The translations under genes were made by a program, and so were the position numbers. The notes under the pieces are model-generated. The model was not told where the DNA came from, made no database searches, and worked only from the letters and a program-made list of their open reading frames with translations. Below are positions 15,771-46,143 of a stretch of DNA of 64,000 nucleotides, one piece after another. This DNA comes from Chloroflexota bacterium (GTDB taxonomy: Bacteria; Chloroflexota; Dehalococcoidia; DSGV01), in the NCBI GenBank assembly GCA_021787985.1, contig JAJYLG010000001.1, positions 50,163 to 114,162 on the forward strand. The letters run 5' to 3'. The first letter of the stretch is position 1. Each line of letters opens with the position of its first letter.

Positions 15771-17336
15771 TCACGTGAGGCCGGCCGGCCCCACACGCAC
15801 TCGCACGCGCGCATATCCTGTGGCGCCGTTCGGCAACGGCTCGCTCTCGGTGGCCGTCTGCGCCCTTCCGCCACCGTCTGCGGCCCGCGCGACGATCTCG
15901 AGGACCTGCGGGGCCTGACTCGCCCTTACGTCCCACTCGTAGGACCACAGCACCCACGCGGCGGGACCAAGAGGCGGAACCAGCCTCGCCTCGCGCCAGG
16001 TCTGGCCACCGTCGGTGGAAAGCTCCACCCGGCTGATGCCTCGGTCGCCCGCGAAAGCTACGCCCTGTACACGCACGGTGCCCTCGCCCAGCTCCACGCC
16101 GTCGGCGGGGACGTCGATGCGGCAGAAGGTGTGCACGTGGGCCTCCTGGCTCCAGCCGCGCTGCTCCCAGTAGCCGAAGTACTCCTTTTCAGTGAACAGG
16201 ATCTGGGTGATCCACTTGGGGTTCTTCATGCCGTAGCGGCCGGGCACGAGCAGGCGCAGAGGAAAGCCATGTTCCACCGGCAGGGTCTCGCCGTTCATGC
16301 GATACGCCAGCATGACATCGTCGCGGAGCGCTACCTCCAACGGCAGGCTGTCAGAGTAGCCGTCCTGGGAACGAAAGACGACCGACCGCGCGGGCGGCAA
16401 CGGCTGAAGCTCGCCGAGCAACGGAGCCAGCGGCAGGCCCGTCCATGCGGCGTTACTGATGAGGCCGCCCTGCAGTCGGTTGCTGATGCATTCAAGGGTC
16501 AGAAACACGGTCTTTGATGGTCGTGCCAGGATGTCATCGTAGGTGAGAACAAGCGTCCGCCCGGAGCTGCCATCCACCCGCAGGCGCCAGGTATCCGGGT
16601 CGACCCGAGGCGGGGAGAAGTCCTTTGATACAACATAGAACTGCGCGGTCGGCGTGACCGCGGGCGTCGGCCTCCCGGCCCGTGTGGCGCGGGTTGCTCG
16701 CACGAAAAGATCCAGCACCTGCTTGCCGGTGAAACCCAGCGCCAGCACGCCCAGCACCCAGGCAACGGAGGTGGTCACGAACTGACGGCGGGTAGCGCCG
16801 GCTTGGGCCGCGGGGCCATCCCTCAGGACTCGCGCGGGGCCGGCCGGCACGCCACGAACCGCCGTCGTCACGGCGGCGAACGTCAAAGACGCGAGCAGGG
16901 ACACCAGAGCGTATCCCTGCCATTGCTTCTCAGCGGTGATCCGGCCCGGGTAGAGCGCGCCGGGAAGCAGCCCCAGCACGATGAGGAGAAACGACGGCAA
17001 GGCCGCGCGGAGCAGGAAGGCCTGCAGGGCTTCGCCGAGTCGCCCGCCGGACCGCCGAATCCAGCGGCGGAGCACATCGCCGTCCATGAGCATCGAGATG
17101 ACGGCGTAGAGCGCTATCTGTGCGACGACAACGCCGGCGAAGACCAGCGGCTTGGCGTAGCCTTCCAGACGCGTCAGGAGGAAAGCGAAGGCGCCGAACC
17201 CCAGCGAGAAGGGGGCGGAATCGACCGCCACGTCTGCCAGCACGGGTGTGCCATACGCCCGGCGGAAGACAAGCGAGACGGCAACCGCCGCGAAAGCGCC
17301 GGGCAGCGACCGGCAGAGGGACCCGCGGGCGCTCAA
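15771..17336 (-). CDS. Molybdopterin-dependent oxidoreductase of the sulfite oxidase/MsrP (YedY) family, with an N-terminal membrane domain
   Basis: A hydrophobic N-terminal ~200 aa is followed by ...LTLECISNRLQGGLISNAAWTGLPL... and ...HGFPLRLLVPGRYGMKNPKWITQI..., the Moco-binding and dimerisation motifs. The start codon (TTG in the ORF track) is uncertain. Confidence 0.65.
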   Translation of the reverse strand: MSARGSLCRSLPGAFAAVAVSLVFRRAYGTPVLADVAVDSAPFSLGFGAFAFLLTRLEGYAKPLVFAGVVVAQIALYAVISMLMDGDVLRRWIRRSGGRLGEALQAFLLRAALPSFLLIVLGLLPGALYPGRITAEKQWQGYALVSLLASLTFAAVTTAVRGVPAGPARVLRDGPAAQAGATRRQFVTTSVAWVLGVLALGFTGKQVLDLFVRATRATRAGRPTPAVTPTAQFYVVSKDFSPPRVDPDTWRLRVDGSSGRTLVLTYDDILARPSKTVFLTLECISNRLQGGLISNAAWTGLPLAPLLGELQPLPPARSVVFRSQDGYSDSLPLEVALRDDVMLAYRMNGETLPVEHGFPLRLLVPGRYGMKNPKWITQILFTEKEYFGYWEQRGWSQEAHVHTFCRIDVPADGVELGEGTVRVQGVAFAGDRGISRVELSTDGGQTWREARLVPPLGPAAWVLWSYEWDVRASQAPQVLEIVARAADGGGRAQTATESEPLPNGATGYARVRVRVGPAGLT

Positions 17337-17733: not shown

Positions 17734-18660
17734 ATGGTTCGAGACATCGTCATTGTCGGAGCAGGGGTCGCCGGTCTGAGCGCCGGGTTGATCGCAGCGC
17801 AGAGCGGGTTTGACACGGTGGTGGTTGATCCGCTGGGCGGCGGCGGCCAATTGGTCAACATCGACCGAGTGCTGAACTACCCGGGGCTCGATGAGATCCA
17901 CGGCTTCGATCTGGGTCCCCGGATCGCCACCCAGGCGATGGACCAGGGAGTGTCGTTTGTCCTCGGAACCGTCGACGGTCTGCGAGCGGAGGCCGACGAG
18001 CTCGACGTCGTCCTGGACTCGGGCGACGTGATCACGGGGAAGTCCGTCATCCTGGCGATGGGTTCCAGCATCCGCCGAGCCGGGATTGAAAACGAAGAGG
18101 CGTTCGAGGGACGGGGCATCTCGTACTGTGGCGTGTGCGATGGTCCGTTCTTTGCCGGGCGCGAGATCGCCGTCGTCGGCGGTGGGGACTCGGCCGCCGA
18201 CGAAGCGCTGTACCTGGCGACCCTCGCCAAGCGCGTGCACCTTGTCTTCCCGGCCGGCGAGATGCACGCCATGGCTGCGGCCCAGAAGCGGCTCCGCGAG
18301 CTGAATAATGTTGTGTTGATGCCAAACTACAGAGTGGCCCAAGCGGCCGGCGACGGCAGCGGCTTGAAGCGACTCCAGTTGGTGGACGTCCGCGACAGCT
18401 CCACCGCCGACCTCGAGGTGGAAGGAGCATTCTTGTACACCGGGCTGGCTTCCAGCACGGCGTTTCTGAAGGGGTTGATGGAGCTCGATGAGGGCGGGCA
18501 CGTGGTCACCGATGCCTGTCTGCGGACGAACGTGCCCGGAATCTTCGCCGCGGGCGACATCCGCCAGTTCTCGGTGAAGCTGCTCGCGGCCGCGGCCGGG
18601 GACGGCGCCAGCGCGGCGGTCTGGGCCGGCCGCTACCTGCGCGGGCAGCGCAGTTCGTAG
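17734..18660 (+). CDS. FAD/NAD(P)-dependent pyridine nucleotide-disulfide oxidoreductase, thioredoxin-reductase-like
   Basis: Begins MVRDIVIVGAGVAGLSAG and has a redox-active CGVC plus a second GGGDSA dinucleotide motif. A GAGGA RBS lies 8 nt upstream of the ATG at 17734. Confidence 0.8.
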   Translation: MVRDIVIVGAGVAGLSAGLIAAQSGFDTVVVDPLGGGGQLVNIDRVLNYPGLDEIHGFDLGPRIATQAMDQGVSFVLGTVDGLRAEADELDVVLDSGDVITGKSVILAMGSSIRRAGIENEEAFEGRGISYCGVCDGPFFAGREIAVVGGGDSAADEALYLATLAKRVHLVFPAGEMHAMAAAQKRLRELNNVVLMPNYRVAQAAGDGSGLKRLQLVDVRDSSTADLEVEGAFLYTGLASSTAFLKGLMELDEGGHVVTDACLRTNVPGIFAAGDIRQFSVKLLAAAAGDGASAAVWAGRYLRGQRSS

Positions 18661-18715: not shown

Positions 18716-19342
18716 CTACGTTGCCAGCAGCCAGTCGACGACGCGCCGGTACTGCGCAAGCGGCACCTCGCCGACAACGCGAACGGCGCCGGCCGCGTCG
18801 GCGAGCAGCACCGTCGGCACCGCGGTGATGCCGCGTGTCTGAGCCTCGATGAAGTCGGCGAGCACCGCTGCCCGCTGTGTGCCCTCGTCGAGGTCGCGCT
18901 GGAAGCCCGCCACGTCCAGCCCCGCGCTGTCGGCCACCTGGATGAGCACGTCTCGCTGTGAGATGTCCCGGTTGAGCTCGAAGTAGGCGCGCAGCAGCGC
19001 CTCGTGGTAGCGAGCGAATGCTTCTGCACCCTGCCGCTCGGCGCACTTTCCGGCCTCCAGGGCCGGCAGGCTGTGTGAGGGCATGTCGCGGTCGTCGGGC
19101 CACGGGTGGAAGGTGACGCCATCCGGCGCGCCCATCTCTGCGGCCATTCGCCAGGACTCGCGCGTGTGGTCGTCGGGGCGACGGCCCTCGGCCTCAGGCT
19201 CAGGTCGCAGCGGGTAGGCTTTCCACGTGACGTTCACGCTTCCCGCGTACGTGTGCGTGATCTTGCGCAGACGAACCGCCGCGTTGTAGCACCACGGTCA
19301 GAGGTAATCCGAGTACGCGGTGACGATGACTGGCCCAGCCAT
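18716..19342 (-). CDS. DsbA/FrnE-like thiol-disulfide oxidoreductase with in-frame TGA (predicted selenocysteine, UPWC motif)
   Basis: Translation from ATG 19340-19342 reads MAGPVIVTAYSDYL-TGA(19298-19300)-PWCYNAAVRLRKI.... The TGA sits where DsbA/FrnE proteins have the first Cys of CPWC. The downstream ORF 18716..19237 is in the same frame and continues a DsbA fold (...GITAVPTVLL...). A GAGG RBS is present. A hairpin lies 14 nt after the TGA. Confidence 0.7.
19266..19283 (-). other. SECIS-like stem-loop downstream of the DsbA-like TGA
   Basis: The mRNA forms CGCGG-CGGUUCGU-CUGCG (5 bp stem including a G-U pair, loop with GGUU), starting 14 nt after the UGA. Confidence 0.35.
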
Positions 19343-19432
19343 CCTCGATTCCCCCGTTGCGTGACTTGCCCAGGACCACAGACGATCGGTTCATCGAGGC
19401 TGAAGCCTGGGCTCCTTTCCGGGGCTCGGCGC

Positions 19433-21751
19433 TTACGCCCGCTGCCCCGGTTCTGTACGTTCCCTCGAAGACGAGCGCCGGACACGGGCGGCACGCGGCG
19501 CCCTGGTCTTGGTGGGAGACCGTGTGGCCGCGGCGGACAGGTCCGGCGCCGCCGATGGCTCGGGATCCGCAGCGCCGGTGCCCCCGAGCCCGTGGAGGTC
19601 GGGTGGTCGCCGTGCTTCGCCGATCGCCTTCCTGAAATGGCGGGCCGCAAGCGCCAAGCGCTCGGGCTCAGGCTCCTGACCCCGTTCGATCTGCTCCCGG
19701 ACGGCGAGCATGGTCGCCCGGCGACAGACGAAGCCGATGCGCCCGCCGGTCCAGCCGTCCGTGAGGTCGGCGAGCGTCTCCACTTCCACGTCATCCGCGA
19801 GAGGCTTGCCGTTCAGGTGTAGCTGGAAGATCTCCAGCCTCGCGGCCTTGGCCGGGAGCGGAAGCTCGATTACCAGCTCGAACCGACCGGGAGTCAACAG
19901 CGCGGCGTCGATGGCCTCCGGCCGATTCGCTGCCGCCATCACGACGATGCCGTCCGTCTCGGCCAGCTCATCCATCTCGGTGAGAAGCTGGCTAACGATG
20001 CGATCAGTGACTTGCGTGTCGGACGCGGCGTCCCGTGCGGGCGCCAACGCGGCGAGATCATCAAAGAAGAGGATGCACGGGGCGGTAGTCCGGGCGCGGC
20101 GGAACGCTTCCCGCACTCCCTTCTCGGTCTCGCCGAGCCACTTCGAGAGCAGCTCCGCGCCTCGGACAGGAATCAACGTGCTCTTGCTTTCGCCCGCGAC
20201 GGCTCTGGCCAGGAGGGTCTTCCCAGCTCCTGAAGGTCCGTACAGCAGCACGCCTTTCGGCGGTCGCGCTTGCGCCCGCTGGAAGAGCGCTGGATACTTC
20301 GTCGGCCAGACGATGGCCTCGTCGAGCGCCTGCTTCGCCTCTTCCAGCCCCGCCACGTCGCTCCAGCCGGCCCGAGGTGTTTCGCTGGACAGGCCGCGCA
20401 TCGCGGCCGGCTTCAGACCTGCCAGCGCTTCGAAGAAGTCGGCGCCGCTGACGATCAGGCTCTCCAGTGAGCTGGGCGACCAGTCGCCGGCGTTGCCGCC
20501 GGACGGCGCCATCTCCTTCCTCAGGCGCACCATTGCCGCCTCGCGGCACAAGTTGGCCAGGTCGGCGCCGACGAAGCCATGGGTCAGGTCGGCGATGCTG
20601 GCCAGATCGACGTCCGCGGCGAGCGGCATGGGGTGAGTGTGGATGGCCAAAATCTCGAGCCGCCCGGAGGTACCCGGCACCGGCACGTGGATCTCACGGT
20701 CGAACCTGCCAGGCCGGCGCAGGGCGGGATCGAGCATGTCGGGAGCGTTTGTGGCAGCGATGACGATCACCTGCTCCCGTGACTCGAGGCCGTCCATGAG
20801 CGCCATCAACTGCGCCACGACTCGCTTCTCCACGTCTCCGTAGACGTCCTCGCGCTTGAGCGCGACGGCGTCGATCTCGTCGAAGAAGATGACCGAGGGC
20901 GCATTCTCGCGGGCCTCGCGGAACACCTCGCGCAGGCGCGACTCCGACTCGCCATAGAATTTGTGGAAGATCTCCGGACCGCTGACGTGGATGAAGTGGG
21001 CCGAGGTCTCGCCCGCGACTGCCCGGGCGACCAACGTTTTCCCCGTGCCAGGCGGACCGTACAGGAGCACCCCTTTCGGCGGCTCGATCCCCAGCCGTTC
21101 GAAGACCTCTGGATGGAGGAGAGGCAGCTCTACCACCTCGCGCACCCGCTGCAGTTGCAGCGTCAGGCCACCGACATCGGCATAGGTCGTCCGGGGTCCG
21201 GACTCCGACGCACCCACCTGCAGGGCTGTCTCCTCGCAGATCTCAGCCGGGCCCGCCGGCTCCGTCGATTTCACGATGAACTCCGCGGGCCGTAGCTGGT
21301 CATCGTCGATACAAAGGTAGTCGCCCGGCTGCACGACCATGCTCTGAAACCGTGAGCTCAGCTCCTTCGTTCTGTGTCCATCACGATCCGGGAAACCGCC
21401 CAGTGGCACGAGGAGCACTCGCTCTGCGGCCGGGCAGGCGGCGACCTGCACGATCGACGCCGGCTCTCCGAGGTTCACCCGAGCGTTGCGCCGCACCAGC
21501 GCGTCGGCCTGCACGATGCCCTTCCCGCGGTCCGCGGTCCGCGTAGGGTACACCCGCGCGTGGGCAGCTCGCTTGCCGTGAACACGGACGACCTCACCAA
21601 CATGGGCGCCGATGCGCTCCATGTCCGCCGGATCGATGCGGACGATGCCCCTCGCCGCGTCCTCGGTCGGGGCTTCGGCGACCCGGCGCTCGATGCCTAC
21701 TCCGCCGTCCATCCGGTCCCCACCGCGGGCAACGCGGCCATCCTCCGTCAC
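19433..21751 (-). CDS. Cdc48/VCP-like double AAA+ ATPase (Cpa/VAT-like unfoldase)
   Basis: It has an N-terminal double-psi-barrel-like domain and two AAA modules, each with Walker A GPPGTGKT / GPSGAGKT and a second-region-of-homology. The GTG start at 21751 overlaps the upstream stop (GTGA). An alternative ATG start lies at 21712. Confidence 0.85.
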   Translation of the reverse strand: MTEDGRVARGGDRMDGGVGIERRVAEAPTEDAARGIVRIDPADMERIGAHVGEVVRVHGKRAAHARVYPTRTADRGKGIVQADALVRRNARVNLGEPASIVQVAACPAAERVLLVPLGGFPDRDGHRTKELSSRFQSMVVQPGDYLCIDDDQLRPAEFIVKSTEPAGPAEICEETALQVGASESGPRTTYADVGGLTLQLQRVREVVELPLLHPEVFERLGIEPPKGVLLYGPPGTGKTLVARAVAGETSAHFIHVSGPEIFHKFYGESESRLREVFREARENAPSVIFFDEIDAVALKREDVYGDVEKRVVAQLMALMDGLESREQVIVIAATNAPDMLDPALRRPGRFDREIHVPVPGTSGRLEILAIHTHPMPLAADVDLASIADLTHGFVGADLANLCREAAMVRLRKEMAPSGGNAGDWSPSSLESLIVSGADFFEALAGLKPAAMRGLSSETPRAGWSDVAGLEEAKQALDEAIVWPTKYPALFQRAQARPPKGVLLYGPSGAGKTLLARAVAGESKSTLIPVRGAELLSKWLGETEKGVREAFRRARTTAPCILFFDDLAALAPARDAASDTQVTDRIVSQLLTEMDELAETDGIVVMAAANRPEAIDAALLTPGRFELVIELPLPAKAARLEIFQLHLNGKPLADDVEVETLADLTDGWTGGRIGFVCRRATMLAVREQIERGQEPEPERLALAARHFRKAIGEARRPPDLHGLGGTGAADPEPSAAPDLSAAATRSPTKTRAPRAARVRRSSSRERTEPGQRA

Positions 21752-23599: not shown

Positions 23600-24688
23600 C
23601 TACTCGCGCAAGTCCGCGACGCGCGCGACCGGCGTTCCGTCCCGTCGGCACAGCGCCCGCGTCACCGGACGCGTCTGGTCCCCGAACGTGGGTTGCCAGC
23701 TACTGTGCTTGCCGGCGCCTCCTACCACGATGACGGAGATCGCCTCCGGCGCATCTGCGATGGGCACCATCGTGTCATCTCGGTCTGGGAGCCCATTGCG
23801 GTGCGCCAGGAAGGCCCGGTACTCGGGGCCGAGGCGTCCCAACGGGAACCGTGCCTGCTCGAACAGGAACTGCTTCACCGTGCGCTTCGAGAACCCGTCC
23901 CGGGCAAGCGTGGCGGCGTGCTCTGGCCCCAGGCTCAGCAGCGGCCAGCCACGGCCGAGGAGATTGTTGCTTCCGGCCTCGCCCATGGCGCCCGCGATCA
24001 GGTGGAGGATGCCGATCCCGGTGGTGCTGTAATGGTCCTGAATGTTGTGCGGGCCCTCGCAGCCGAAGACGGTCACCGTGCTGGTGTCTGGCGCGAACCC
24101 GCGCTCGACGTGCAGCGGCTCCCAGGGATTTTGCTCTTCGTTTTCGGCCACGCAGTAGGCGATCTTTGCCGGGTTCCCTTGAGTGGCGCGATCGCCGCGA
24201 CCGGGCAGCCCTCCGCCGATGTTCATCAGGATGAGGCGCATGGCTCTGCCGATCGTTGCGTTCGCGCGAAAGCCCTGGCCGAACGCGTTGTAACCGGCAT
24301 TGATGCTGAGCTCGCGCGCGACTGGCCCGTTGACGACGACCAATGGCGCGACCGGGTGGGTTGTCGCCTGGATCGAGTCGATGTTGAACGCCGGGTCGGC
24401 GATCGCCTCCACTGCCGCGATCACGACCGGTAGGAATTCCGGCCGGCAGCCCGCCATGGCCGCGTTGATCGCGATCCTTTCCACCGTGGCCTCGCCCTGC
24501 CTCGGAGGCAGCACCGCGACGACCTCCTGGCGATCCCGGTCTGTCCAGCCGAGGAGCTCCTCGACGAGGTCCTCGGTGGGCGGCACGATCGGCAGGCCGT
24601 CGGTCCAGCCGCGTTCTTGGTAGAGCTCGTTGATCGCTCGATACGAGTCCTCGACGCGCAGCGTCCGGGCCGCCGCTCCGTCAGCCAC
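23600..24688 (-). CDS. Uncharacterised conserved protein, UGSC-associated partner A (paralog of 31116..32156)
   Basis: It shares N-terminal ...GWTDGLPIVPPTE... and a central ...GQGFRANATIGRAMRLILMNIGGGLPG... block with the paralog. The GTG start (second GTG, 24686-24688) lies 6 nt after a GGGAGGGA RBS and overlaps the UGSC-A stop by 8 nt. Confidence 0.65.
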   Translation of the reverse strand: MADGAAARTLRVEDSYRAINELYQERGWTDGLPIVPPTEDLVEELLGWTDRDRQEVVAVLPPRQGEATVERIAINAAMAGCRPEFLPVVIAAVEAIADPAFNIDSIQATTHPVAPLVVVNGPVARELSINAGYNAFGQGFRANATIGRAMRLILMNIGGGLPGRGDRATQGNPAKIAYCVAENEEQNPWEPLHVERGFAPDTSTVTVFGCEGPHNIQDHYSTTGIGILHLIAGAMGEAGSNNLLGRGWPLLSLGPEHAATLARDGFSKRTVKQFLFEQARFPLGRLGPEYRAFLAHRNGLPDRDDTMVPIADAPEAISVIVVGGAGKHSSWQPTFGDQTRPVTRALCRRDGTPVARVADLRE

Positions 24689-25256
24689 GCTCACTCCCTC
24701 CCTGAACGCCCGGAGCTGGCAGCGGCACGGCGGCGCTCACCGCTGTTGCCACCGCATCGGCGAGGTCCTTCGCCTTCGCCACCACCTCCTCCTCGGGGAT
24801 GCCCCCCAGCGGGTGCTGCGTGAGCGCGATCGGAAGCTCGGGCAGGCCGCGGTTCCGCGCCTCGAGCCGTGCGAGGGCCTGGAACTCGTCCGTACCGACC
24901 ACTACGGTAGGAACTCCCTGCTTCTCGAGCAGGATGGCGCCGTGGATACTCCACGACGTGCACGACCCTCAGTCCGCGCTGCCCACGATGACGAAGTCGC
25001 ACGTCATCAGGTCAGCCAGCACGTCCGGGGGAGGCGGTCCGGCGATGGGCTTCTCCCGCTTCAACACTTCGCGTATGCCGTGAAGCTCCTGCAGCCGCTT
25101 GGCGACCGACAGCATGAGGATGTCCGCGTTCGGCTTGCCGTTGTCCAGGATCCCGACGCGCGCGCCGGCGAGGCTGTCCAGTCGCGGCGCCAGCCTGACG
25201 GAGGCCACCTTGGGTTCGGCCGTCGGGTCATAAACTCTCGTCCAACGCTCGGTCAT
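24681..25256 (-). CDS. UGSC-motif small selenoprotein A (in-frame TGA at 24969-24971)
   Basis: Starts at ATG 25254-25256 with an AAGGGAG RBS. The ORFs 24969..25295 and 24681..24902 are in one frame and joined by a TGA: ...DFVIVGSAD-U-GSCTSWSIHGAILLEKQGVPTVVVGTDEF.... The paralog 32176..32718 has a TGA at the same aligned position. Confidence 0.7.
24939..24957 (-). other. SECIS-like stem-loop downstream of the UGSC-A TGA
   Basis: The mRNA forms GUCGUGG-AGUAU-CCACGGC (7 bp stem, 5-nt loop with GU), starting 11 nt after the UGA. Confidence 0.45.
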
Positions 25257-25366
25257 TGGCGTGCTCCCTTCGCCCTGCTGCTCTTCCTTCGCCACAGTCT
25301 ATGGGAACCCCCGTGCAGGAGGGCGAGACGCGCGCGAAGCTCGCCCTCCTGCATCAAGGTCGGCGG

Positions 25367-31115: not shown

Positions 31116-32156
31116 TCACGGCGCCACCGCCAGGTCACGCACGACGGCCGAGGTCATTTGTGTGTCTCCAAAGTTCGAGCAGACCGTGACGTGATACGGC
31201 TCGTCCCCGCCCGCCACGACCAGCACGATGTCTTCCGGCTGGGCGGCGACGGCATGCTCTTCCGAGATGGCGCGGCGCTCGGGGCGGCCGCCCAGGGCCT
31301 GGATCTCGTCCGGGAAGCGCGACCGCGGCACCTTCGCGTGCTCGTACAGCCATTCCTTGGTGCGCTGCTTGTCGTAGCCCTGGCTCTGGAGCAGATTGGC
31401 GTGGCCGTAGCTCATGATCACCAGCGGATTCCCGTGCTGGAACTCGACGTTGTTGGCGCCCACCTGCCCGAGCGTGTCCGCCACCGCCAGCAGCACGCTC
31501 TCCGCCTTCTTGTAGATGGCGAGGACGTTGGCCGTCCCGATCGCCCCGACGCAGGTAACGACACTCTCGTTCGCAGCGAAACCTCGTTCGACGTGCAGCG
31601 GGGGCCACGGGCTGCGCTCCTCGTCCTCGCCGAAGCAGAACGTGTACTTCCCCGGCATCCCGTGCAGCGCCTGGTCCACGGTGCCGGGAGCGGCGCCACC
31701 GATGTGCAGCATGCAGAGGCGGACCGCCCGCCCGATCGTGGCGTTCGCGCGCCAGCCGGGGCCGAGCAGCCCGCGCTGGCAGTTGATGCCGATCGTGCGT
31801 CGTATCGGCCCGTTGACGATGATGGCGGGTCCAACGGGATTGGTCGTGGTCTGGATGCCGTGGAGGTTGAAATCGGGGATCGCCAGCGCCTCGACCGCGG
31901 CGATAACCGTCGACATGTACTCCGGCAGGCAGCCCGCCATCACCGCGTTGGCCGCGATCGTCTCGATGGTGGCCGCGCCCCCCGCCGGGTCGAGGTAGGC
32001 GATGAGCTCGTCCGGCGGGCGTGCGGTCGCCGCCACCATGGCCGCGACCCGCTCCTCCGTCGGGGGTATCAGGGGCAGTCCGTCTCCCCAGCCCTGGGCC
32101 TGGGCGTAGTCCAACCACCCATCGAGTGAGTCCGGGACCTCTCGAACGGTAGCCAC
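31116..32156 (-). CDS. Uncharacterised conserved protein, UGSC-associated partner B (paralog of 23600..24688)
   Basis: Contains ...GWGDGLPLIPPTEE... and ...GPGWRANATIGRAVRLCMLHIGGAAPG.... It has a GTG start 20 nt after the UGSC-B stop. Confidence 0.65.
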   Translation of the reverse strand: MATVREVPDSLDGWLDYAQAQGWGDGLPLIPPTEERVAAMVAATARPPDELIAYLDPAGGAATIETIAANAVMAGCLPEYMSTVIAAVEALAIPDFNLHGIQTTTNPVGPAIIVNGPIRRTIGINCQRGLLGPGWRANATIGRAVRLCMLHIGGAAPGTVDQALHGMPGKYTFCFGEDEERSPWPPLHVERGFAANESVVTCVGAIGTANVLAIYKKAESVLLAVADTLGQVGANNVEFQHGNPLVIMSYGHANLLQSQGYDKQRTKEWLYEHAKVPRSRFPDEIQALGGRPERRAISEEHAVAAQPEDIVLVVAGGDEPYHVTVCSNFGDTQMTSAVVRDLAVAP

Positions 32157-32175: not shown

Positions 32176-32718
32176 TTACGCTTCCAGCGGGCGCGGCGCC
32201 GCCACTTTGGCGACCACGTCGTCGATCGCGTTCCTGATCACGCCGCGCGAGCTCTCGGTGTCGCCGAACTCGGTTACCTCGGTTGGCGGAAGCACCACCA
32301 TCGGGGAGCTGCTCGCCCCCTTACCCTTGAACGTGACCGTGGCGAGGTTGACGAACCGCTCGGTCACCAGTACCACGGACGGGATGCCCCGTCGAATCAG
32401 CTCGATCGTGTCGTGGACACTCCACGCGGTGCAGGACCCTCAGTTGGCGAGCCCCACGATGGCGATGTCGGCGTTCTCCGTCGCCTGTTGGAGCACGGCC
32501 TCCGACGCGGCGGCGGCGATGGGCACCTCGAACTCGAGGACCTGCGCGACGCCGAACTCATTGACCAGCGTGCCGCGCATCTCGTCGACCAGCTTGTTCA
32601 TGCTCTGCCAGCCGTTGTTGAGAAAGACGACGGACTTGCCCCGCAGGTCTTGCGGGGCGAACTCCGCGGTCACTCGGGTCGCACGAAACGCACCAGCCGT
32701 CGGTTCTACGATCCGCAT
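32176..32718 (-). CDS. UGSC-motif small selenoprotein B (in-frame TGA at ~32440-32442)
   Basis: Starts at ATG 32716-32718 with a GGGAGAAACAC RBS. ORFs 32440..32718 and 32176..32376 are in the same frame: ...DIAIVGLAN-U-GSCTAWSVHDTIELIRRGIPSVVLVTERF.... This is the same architecture as UGSC-A. Confidence 0.7.
32411..32425 (-). other. SECIS-like stem-loop downstream of the UGSC-B TGA
   Basis: The mRNA forms CGUGG-AGUGU-CCACG, 14 nt after the UGA. It is near-identical in shape to the UGSC-A hairpin (loop AGUGU versus AGUAU). Confidence 0.4.
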
Positions 32719-44885: not shown

Positions 44886-45857
44886 ATGAGAGGACGACTC
44901 CAGGCGGCGCTGGTCGACCGCGACGCGCTTCGGTCTCAGATCCGGGACAAGTACACGGTGGTGGCCCTCGAACCGCAGACGGGCTTCCATTTCCACACGG
45001 GCCGGCCGCTCGCCAGGATGCTCGGCTACGACGAGGCGGACCTGGACCGGCTGCCGTCCGCCGTGGCGGAGTCCTTCGCCGGCACGGGCAACCCGTTCGC
45101 CTTCGGACGGCTGGCGGAAGGCGAGGTGGTCGTCGACATCGGGTGCGGCGCCGGGTTCGACACCTTGTTGGCGGCTGGGCAGGTCGGGCCACGGGGCCGA
45201 GTCATTGCCGTGGACATGACCCCCGCCATGCTCGACAAGGCCGCCGCGGGCGCCCTGGTCCTCAACCTCCGCAACGTCGAGGTACGCCACGGCGTTGCGG
45301 AGGAGCTGCCGGTGCCCAGTCAATCGGCCGACGTTGTCATCAGCAACGGCGTCATGAATCTGTGCCCGGACAAGCTCGCGGCCATGCGCGAGGTCCGCCG
45401 TGTGCTGCGGCCAGGCGGGCGTTTCCAGATCGGCGACCTGGTCGTGCACCAGGAGGTGCCACAGGACGCGAAGGACGACATCGACCTGTGGTCCGGCTGA
45501 ATCGCCGGGGCTCTGCTGGAAGCAGAGTGGGACTGGGTCCTCAAGCACGCCGGGTTCATCGACGTGCGCTGGGGCCGCCAGGTGGATGTCTTCGCGGGCT
45601 CCAAGCACGAGTCCGACGCTCAGGAATTCGGTGCGCGTGGCGTCACGTTCGCTGGTAGGAGACCCATGCGGGCGGCCGACCCCGCGCCCGTGTGGGCGGA
45701 GCGCGACTCTGATGGCGGCCGCCGGTGCGCGGTCCCGGTCGCGTCGGCTGGCCAGCAGCCAGGCCCTTCGTGTGGTAAGATGCAGTCACGGGGACGAAAG
45801 GGCTCGACAGGGGCCGGCGTGCTCGGGTTGCAGGCCGAGGTGCCATCAACCTCGTAA
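44886..45857 (+). CDS. ArsM-like SAM-dependent methyltransferase with in-frame TGA (45498-45500) at the conserved catalytic Cys position. Predicted selenoprotein; 3' end uncertain.
   Basis: Contains a GCGAG SAM motif (VVDIGCGAGFDTLL) and ...VVISNGVMNLCPDK.... Around the TGA it reads DIDLWSG-TGA-IAGALLEAEWDWVLKHAGFIDVRW..., and typical ArsM sequence continues in frame after it. The nominal stop at 45855-45857 overlaps the tmRNA 5' end by ~68 nt. Confidence 0.55.
45511..45527 (+). other. SECIS-like stem-loop 10 nt downstream of the ArsM-like TGA
   Basis: CUCUGC-UGGAA-GCAGAG: a 6-bp stem with a 5-nt loop. Confidence 0.4.
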
Positions 45858-46143
45858 ATCAGGTGGCAAACAAGTAACTGGCGAACCACAACTCGCCCTC
45901 GCTGCCTAAGAGCTAGGCAGCCGTCCGCCACCGCCTCGTCCCGGTGGGTGGTGAACGGGCGACGCAATGCCGGGATGCCGCGCAGCGCTCGCTGACGACG
46001 CGCGCGAAAGATCAGTCAGCCCGCCCCGAAGGGACGCCGGCGGTAGCGGCCCGAGGGGCTCAAACAAAGTGCCGCAGAAGCCTGTGGATGCCCGGGGCGT
46101 ACGCTCACTGGACCGGGGGTTCAATTCCCCCGCGTCTCCACCA
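45790..46143 (+). ncRNA. ssrA: tmRNA (ssrA), tag peptide GEPQLALAA
   Basis: The 5' GGGGACG pairs with the 3' CGUCUCC-A-CCA. The T-arm is GGGGG-UUCAAUU-CCCCC. The tag ORF GGC GAA CCA CAA CTC GCC CTC GCT GCC TAA runs 45880-45909. It is followed by the hairpin CTGCCTAAGAGCTAGGCAG. Confidence 0.85.

Follow-up and report, generated by a model that had tools for sequence, protein, structure and literature searches.

Does a TGA triplet close to the 5' end of a DsbA-like gene end translation, or is it read as selenocysteine (Sec)? The question is raised by a locus on the minus strand of a 64-kb stretch of DNA from a Chloroflexota bacterium (contig JAJYLG010000001.1, positions 50,163 to 114,162), which is called the window here. 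An initial annotation had proposed an oxidoreductase in which Sec replaces the first Cys of a CPWC motif. Our analysis of the reading frame, of homologs and orthologs, of the RNA downstream of the TGA and of other genes in the window makes it highly likely that the gene encodes a 208-residue cytoplasmic DsbA of the FrnE branch (COG2761), in which UGA codon 15 is read as Sec and the active site is U-P-W-C.

DsbA-like selenoproteins with a UxxC motif are documented (PMC1088965, PMC2398784, PMC13188914). A "DsbA-like protein" with nine sequences in COG2761, an FrnE-type COG, was reported from Sargasso Sea data in 2005, and in 2006 DsbA-like selenoproteins were recognized in the genome sequences of several bacteria. 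The GOS survey of 2008 then listed "DsbA 1" (pfam01323, UxxC) with 63 sequences, and a 2026 catalogue contains a "DsbA-like protein form 1". FrnE proteins carry CP(W/F)C, and the FrnE of D. radiodurans (drFrnE) is cytoplasmic with insulin-reduction and isomerase activity; its reduction of 5,5'-dithiobis(2-nitrobenzoic acid) can run on NADPH and thioredoxin reductase (TrxR), and its C-terminal CxxxxC tail is proposed to help regenerate the active site (PMC8945050).

Results

The predicted coding sequence occupies 18716..19342 on the minus strand and, as judged by translation together with Pfam and PDB matches, would yield 208 amino acids with U at residue 15. It opens with an ATG (19340..19342, minus strand) located 14 codons 5' of the UGA, a position that is identical in the orthologs at L082 and L085 (related loci carry L numbers and database proteins carry P numbers). 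The ATG and 13 further codons (AGPVIVTAYSDYL) precede the TGA, and the 14-codon segment in all is MAGPVIVTAYSDYL. Immediately 5' of the ATG, a purine-rich tract could be read from the sequence, GGGGGAATCGAGG (19343..19355, minus strand), made up of GGGGG at 19355-19351 and GAGG at 19346-19343; it resembles a ribosome-binding site and may function as one, and GGGGAG or GGAG is found at a comparable distance 5' of the ATGs of L082 and L085. The in-frame TGA, predicted to be the codon of U15, lies at 19298..19300 (minus strand) and corresponds in alignment to the first Cys of SDYLCPWCY, which is invariant. The active-site motif U-P-W-C accordingly spans 19289..19300 (minus strand), where Cys homologs and D. 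radiodurans FrnE have CPWC. After the TGA the frame reads PWCYNAAVRL and runs on to a TAG stop at 18718-18716 of the minus strand. The initial annotation had described SDYL-TGA-PWCY 14 codons after an ATG with a ribosome-binding site, and its coordinates, motif and frame are exact. The surrounding host DNA is of high GC content (68%).

Read through the TGA, the protein forms a complete domain. The Pfam model DSBA (PF01323) matches residues 7-199 over profile positions 2-187 of 191, with an E value of 3.8e-24 and a score of 86 bits (cutoff 25.6). Among proteins of solved structure, D. radiodurans FrnE is the nearest in sequence (5CNW, E 1.1e-10). This alignment begins in the strand before the active site, where query residues 6-19 (IVTAYSDYLCPWCY) are matched to FrnE residues 13-26 (RVDIWSDIACPWCY), and the cis-Pro loop GITAVP is aligned with GITGVP of FrnE. 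With the Pfam match running nearly end to end and FrnE as the best structural match, the annotation as a complete DsbA/FrnE-like thioredoxin-fold oxidoreductase is borne out. Sequence inspection places strand beta1 (MAGPVIVTAY) directly before the active site at residue 15, so that a signal peptide could not be accommodated; the protein is therefore predicted to be cytoplasmic. Its C-terminus, ...RRVVDWLLAT, is reached at residue 208, and the only Cys residues are C18 and C100.

A pattern scan of a genome collection returned 80 loci with homologs of 35-49% identity (L001-L080), all of them Cys forms; the scan pattern had been back-translated with Cys codons and could return nothing else, so that the count is no evidence on the relative frequency of Sec and Cys. 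SDYLCPWCY is present in 76 of the 76 Cys-form loci matched by motif search (80 by DNA pattern), with TGC in 62 and TGT in 14 at the site of the TGA. In a 45-sequence alignment, C15, P16, W17 and C18 are invariant columns, and nearly all invariant residues of the family are kept in the window protein. The JGI name of the Cys homologs is "DsbA family dithiol-disulfide isomerase", which we take to be the COG2761 description.

Were the TGA a true stop, the product would begin at the GTG at 19237 or at the publicly called ATG and would be a 143-173-aa DsbA fragment without CxxC. Public calls annotate just such fragments. The window gene is called as P0001, a 143-aa fragment without the active site, and when the read-through protein was compared with databases, its three best matches were truncated calls throughout (P0001, 143 aa; P0002, 163 aa; P0003, 143 aa). 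The open reading frame (ORF) list of the window likewise holds only a 173-aa ORF from GTG-19237 for this gene, because the TGA interrupts the frame, and the window showed no genes for Sec machinery. Sec is beyond what gene callers can assign, however, and the public calls are for that reason no evidence for a true stop. The fragment would be a DsbA from which the part matched to FrnE 13-60 (beta1, the active-site helix and beta2) is missing, and the starts called among orthologs are inconsistent, giving 143, 163, 116 and 122 aa. Upstream of these called starts, moreover, the 14 codons before the TGA and 20-50 codons after it are conserved as protein, and most of the changes in them are synonymous.

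The DNA 5' of the P0002 and P0003 calls contains the same ATG, 13 codons, TGA and CCN TGG TGC TAY. A TGA with an ATG 14 codons upstream is in fact common to the five nearest relatives (L082-L085 and L203; 65-66% identity); the nearest labelled relative is an ortholog cluster at 65% identity, designated "Dehalococcoidia bacterium" (MDO8532451.1). Between L082 and L085, the 14 codons before the TGA comprise seven identical, six synonymous and one non-synonymous, and between the window and L082, by inspection, five identical, five synonymous and four non-synonymous. Change in this segment is mostly synonymous, and we therefore regard it as translated; by this comparison, the 14 codons show purifying selection and evolve as coding sequence does. 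The initial annotation had itself named, as the contrary case, a true start at GTG 19237 with a product lacking CxxC, together with a genome devoid of Sec machinery. Conservation of the region before the TGA as protein and the inconsistent starts of the ortholog calls speak against that case, and we consider a true stop very unlikely.

Metagenome contigs were scanned with an exact pattern for DYL-TGA-PWCY, GAYTAYYTNTGACCNTGGTGYTA. The motif was found in at least 120 contigs from soils, sediments and groundwater, and most of these Sec forms have an ATG 12-16 codons upstream (mode 14) and a read-through length of 204-232 aa. On this sequence evidence, occupancy of the invariant Cys codon by TGA, which independent assemblies also show, goes beyond chance. 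A single transversion turns TGC or TGT into TGA, and the hairpin that follows in the window is weak, so that a decaying gene whose Cys codon has become TGA has to be considered. Such a pseudogene is extremely unlikely: the TGA is kept at 65% protein identity and in the 120 or more contigs, the frames are intact without other stops, and nearly all of the invariant family residues persist. Because orthologs and metagenome contigs share the same TGA layout, a pseudogene, a sequencing error and a downstream start can be set aside as explanations.

Public calls of Sec-form members (P0001-P0003, P0011, P0014, P0021 and P0121-P0130) are fragments of 116-185 aa with varying starts. Three of them, P0011, P0014 and P0021, start directly past the active-site region and for this reason are probably further uncalled Sec forms.

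Bacterial selenocysteine insertion sequence (SECIS) elements, as described by a bSECISearch-type model, have an apical loop of 3-9 nt on an upper stem of 4-16 bp, a G within the first two loop positions that is usually followed by G or U, a UGA-to-loop spacing of 16-37 nt and a minimum free energy (MFE) of -7.5 kcal/mol or below (PMC13188914). A putative SECIS, GUGGUGCUACAACGCGGCGGUUCGUCUGCGCAAGAUCAC, is located at 19257..19295 (minus strand), 5-43 nt after the UGA, and is predicted to fold into a single hairpin with an MFE of -9.9 kcal/mol. It consists of a 7-bp lower stem, an internal loop and a 7-bp upper stem with one bulged U, and its apical loop, GUU (19274..19276, minus strand), begins 21 nt after the UGA. 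The hairpin agrees with four of the four consensus constraints (loop of 3 nt with G then U; stem of 7 bp; spacing of 21 nt; -9.9 kcal/mol). The 5-bp stem CGCGG/CUGCG with a GGUU-containing loop that had been annotated 14 nt after the UGA is present, and the two-tier hairpin at 19295-19257 describes the structure better. Its sequence does not resemble that of the E. coli fdhF SECIS, and, compared with consensus bacterial elements, it belongs to a family in which the stem register varies among members.

Most Sec forms have GU, from a Val codon, in the loop, and the spacing is 18-21 nt in about 70% of them. In a position-specific test, a hairpin was counted when it had at least 4 bp, an MFE of -7.5 kcal/mol or below and a G-containing loop starting 18-22 nt after the codon. 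By this definition it is present in 91 of 111 Sec forms and in 26 of 80 Cys forms (Fisher 4e-12). When only representatives of 60%-identity clusters were used, which lessens the effects of relatedness, the counts were 24/33 for Sec and 3/15 for Cys (p 0.0013). Measured against synonymous recodings of the same peptides, Sec forms have a mean z of -0.83 (p 4e-15) and Cys forms of -0.03, and the groups differ with a Mann-Whitney p of 7e-7. The plain MFE of positions +12..+48 failed to distinguish the two groups (p 0.13). Neither this value nor a shuffle-based z is informative here, because GC-rich coding sequence folds anyway.

The Sec forms (L082-L207) and the Cys forms (L001-L080) are interleaved by identity. 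Taken together with the Cys-form hairpins, this interleaving suggests, at the level of sequence, either pre-adaptation to Sec or frequent switching. The self-complementary codons of AAVRL may be a reason for the interleaving in this DsbA-like family.

When the window was screened for in-frame TGAs with coding-like GC at third codon positions on either side, three further genes came up that have a TGA at the known Sec position of their family. The first is a UGSC-family selenoprotein candidate (24681-25295, minus strand; TGA 24969-24971; ...FVIVGSAD-TGA-GSCTSWSIHG...), which matches PF24696 (E 1.9e-50) and NF041046, "UGSC family (seleno)protein" (136.5 bits, cutoff 125), and has a 9-bp hairpin with loop GUA, starting 13 nt after the first UGA base. 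Its paralog, UGSC candidate 2 (32176-32718, minus strand; TGA 32440-32442; ...IAIVGLAN-TGA-GSCTAWSVHD...), matches PF24696 with an E value of 5.5e-33, and its UGA is followed by the hairpin GUGGA-GUG-UCCAC. The third is a candidate ArsM-like S-adenosylmethionine-dependent methyltransferase (44886-45857, plus strand; TGA 45498-45500; ...DLWSG-TGA-IAGALLEAEW), for which arsenite methyltransferase models, including NCBIfam selenoprotein variants, match across the TGA, and whose UGA is followed by an 8-bp hairpin with loop GGA. Its TGA is presumably at the site where ArsM enzymes have a conserved Cys. All three genes thus have a G-first triloop (GUA, GUG or GGA) on a 5-9-bp stem, 17-19 nt after the UGA, and the UGSC and ArsM-like families are both catalogued as selenoproteins.

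Several results weigh against reading UGA codon 15 as Sec. No homolog of SelA, SelB or SelD was found in the 64-kb window by tblastn with the E. coli proteins, nor a tRNA-Sec by ARAGORN; sel genes were also missing from the approximately 4 kb past the right end of the window, and none of the related loci contained SelA, SelB or SelD (tblastn) or tRNA-Sec (ARAGORN). The hairpin of the window is weak when taken alone, with a z of -0.43 against synonymous recodings of the same peptide, and those of the two nearest orthologs are similar in this respect (z -0.23 and -0.20); a 76-nt fold of the region has no excess structure over shuffles (z +0.10). When 109 Sec-form sequences without gaps were folded column-wise with RNAalifold, no consensus structure emerged. 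Finally, the 26 Cys forms counted above have a SECIS-like hairpin at the same position.

Some of these results have explanations in the sequences themselves. The failure of RNAalifold to return a consensus reflects a stem register that differs from lineage to lineage: registers are set by coordinated third-position choices (GCC GCG GUG CGG in one case, GCG GCG GUC CGC in another), and in the lower stem the invariant UGG UGC codons pair with GCACCGG in L082 and L085 and with AG...AUCAC in the window. About a third of the Cys forms carry the hairpin because the AAVRL codons (GCN GCN GUN CGN CUN) are self-complementary. An Rfam search, made with the gathering threshold and also with E <= 10, matched no SECIS family. 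This was to be expected, since few of the varied SECIS elements of bacteria are represented in Rfam.

Read-through of the UGA could also be selenium-free if near-cognate or suppressor decoding placed Cys, Trp or some other residue there, to give a CPWC- or WPWC-type site. Cys is ancestral at this active-site position, and Sec machinery was not directly observed. Set against this, ordinary stops in the window are most often TGA, which ends 24 of 49 coding-like segments, and all four in-frame TGAs are located at catalogued Sec positions, each with a SECIS-like hairpin, a pattern for which general read-through does not account. We regard selenium-free read-through as highly improbable. Because TGA also serves as an ordinary stop, the recoding is site-specific and the genetic code is unchanged. 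With four genes carrying a TGA at a Sec position in 64 kb, it follows that Sec decoding in this genome is very likely, and on this sequence evidence the organism very probably decodes Sec. The proposed replacement of the first Cys of CPWC by Sec has therefore stood up: Cys homologs align at the TGA, the TGA is conserved in orthologs, the hairpin agrees with the SECIS consensus, Sec and Cys forms contrast across the family, and three more genes of selenoprotein type are found in the same window.

Each of the two UGSC genes is overlapped or abutted at its 3' side by an ORF for a partner of unknown type (23600-24694 and 31116-32156, both on the minus strand). The two partner ORFs encode 346-364 aa, share 42% identity (E 2e-85) and have no Pfam or NCBIfam match. 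The arrangement suggests that a cassette of two genes, for a UGSC selenoprotein and its partner, has been duplicated. The GOS paper describes UGSC fused to an "Unknown_1" domain (PMC2398784), and the partner protein may be this domain. The read-through frame of the ArsM-like gene stops at 45855-45857, about 65 nt inside a transfer-messenger RNA (tmRNA) gene (45790-46143, plus strand) with the tag peptide GEPQLALAA. The tmRNA and the coding-region SECIS elements confirm that the DNA is of bacterial origin.

Directly upstream of the DsbA-like gene and on the same strand, a gene for a CDC48-family double-AAA ATPase (19433..21751, minus strand; Pfam) is separated from it by 90 nt. The corresponding gap is 45 nt in L082. 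No terminator-like site was found in the CDC48-DsbA gap, and the two genes are probably co-transcribed. The adjacency is kept in L082-L085, and the ATPase gene is the only neighbor conserved with the orthologs; the pair of CDC48 and Sec-DsbA is conserved in three lineages at 60-65% identity, with all other neighbors differing. The sister-clade ortholog of the ATPase is 59% identical, and its other best matches are archaeal (49-51%), from Bathyarchaeia, Thermoprotei and others, on contigs with genes for Topo VI, PolB and L37ae; the loci compared include L082, L083 and L209-L211. These archaeal CDC48 homologs have no DsbA-like neighbor, and the pair was seen only in this bacterial clade.

On the other side, a gene for a flavoprotein of the TrxR family (17734..18660, plus strand) is convergent with the DsbA-like gene, as originally annotated; its product has a CGVC redox motif and scores 277.9 bits against TIGR01292, below the cutoff of 343. 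A molybdopterin oxidoreductase gene (15771-17336, minus strand; Pfam/NCBIfam) lies about 1.4 kb from the DsbA-like gene. It belongs to the sulfite-oxidase family with a Mo-co dimerisation domain, its N-terminal approximately 200 aa appear by eye to span the membrane in multiple passes, and its best models are SoxC (E 1e-39) and SorA (E 2e-35), both below cutoffs. The initial annotation was right to report a molybdoenzyme gene nearby, and its MsrP label is not retained, given an MsrP E value of only 2e-14. In approximately 200 related loci searched by tblastn, no homologs of the TrxR-like and molybdoenzyme genes were found adjacent, apart from those on a duplicate contig of the window itself and a single weak match to the molybdoenzyme in L110. 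The dedicated redox relay that had been suggested from these two genes is unsupported, because neither is conserved beside the orthologs. A TrxR-type reductant for the Sec-DsbA is plausible biochemically.

Discussion

The window gene shares with DsbA-like form 1 the PF01323 domain, a UxxC motif with Sec for the first Cys, abundant Cys homologs and a coding-region SECIS just past the UGA. The placement goes by described family features. As far as sequence can tell, the gene fits every feature of DsbA-like form 1 and is a further member of a documented family. It differs from published DsbA-like selenoproteins in that it comes from a 68%-GC bacterium and from a small clade in which the gene is linked to that of a CDC48-like ATPase.

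Among DsbA-family proteins of solved structure, the best match is FrnE of D. radiodurans (DR_0659), with which it shares a CPWC-type motif near the N-terminus, the lack of a signal peptide and the cis-Pro (V-P) loop. Unlike drFrnE, it has a predicted Sec in place of the first Cys, is 208 rather than 260 aa in length and has no C-terminal CxxxxC tail. The FrnE proteins of S. roseofulvus and D. maricopensis are also without this tail (PMC8945050), so that its absence does not exclude membership in the FrnE group (cd03024 / COG2761). With periplasmic DsbA of the E. coli type, the protein shares the thioredoxin fold with a helical insertion, a CxxC-type site, the cis-Pro loop and the Pfam family, but it lacks a signal peptide and has PW instead of PH in the motif. 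No DsbB-like gene was found among the ORFs examined around the gene (15.7-21.8 kb). By analogy with these relatives, a role as a cytoplasmic reductase or isomerase appears more likely than one in periplasmic oxidation.

For the selenoprotein reading, we infer Sec insertion, the catalytic cycle, substrates and recycling partner along the following lines. The hairpin in the coding region would present G-U in its small apical loop 21 nt past the UGA. SelB, together with GTP and Sec-tRNA(Sec), would bind the loop and, competing with release factor 2, bring Sec to the ribosome. Sec15 would then be positioned at the N-terminus of the first thioredoxin-fold helix, where it would replace the solvent-exposed nucleophilic Cys and could attack substrate disulfides or other oxidised thiols. 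By analogy with UxxC selenoproteins of the thioredoxin fold, Cys18 would resolve Sec15, forming an intramolecular selenenylsulfide that an external cellular reductase would recycle.

The conserved linkage to the CDC48-like gene raises the idea that the Sec-FrnE-like protein might be a dedicated partner of this unfoldase, as a redox-sensing adaptor or as a reductase that prepares substrates. This would be loosely comparable to the DsbA-like YjbH with ClpXP. YjbH is an adaptor for an AAA+ protease. Similarity of the window protein to Geobacillus YjbH (GK0824, PDB 6GHB; E 7.4e-7) is weaker than to FrnE, and the ATPase linked to the window gene is of the CDC48 type, not ClpX. A dedicated partnership with CDC48 seems improbable; if it were true, selenium chemistry would gate protein unfolding or degradation.

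Conclusions

No new mechanism is involved, since UxxC DsbA-like selenoproteins and coding-region SECIS elements are already established. The practical use of the result lies in annotation: the public annotation of this Sec-DsbA gene and its relatives is truncated (143-163 aa), with the active site lost, and genes mis-called in this manner number at least 120 in soil, sediment and groundwater metagenomes. Four selenoprotein candidates in 64 kb constitute a dense set that is useful for selenoproteome surveys of uncultured lineages.

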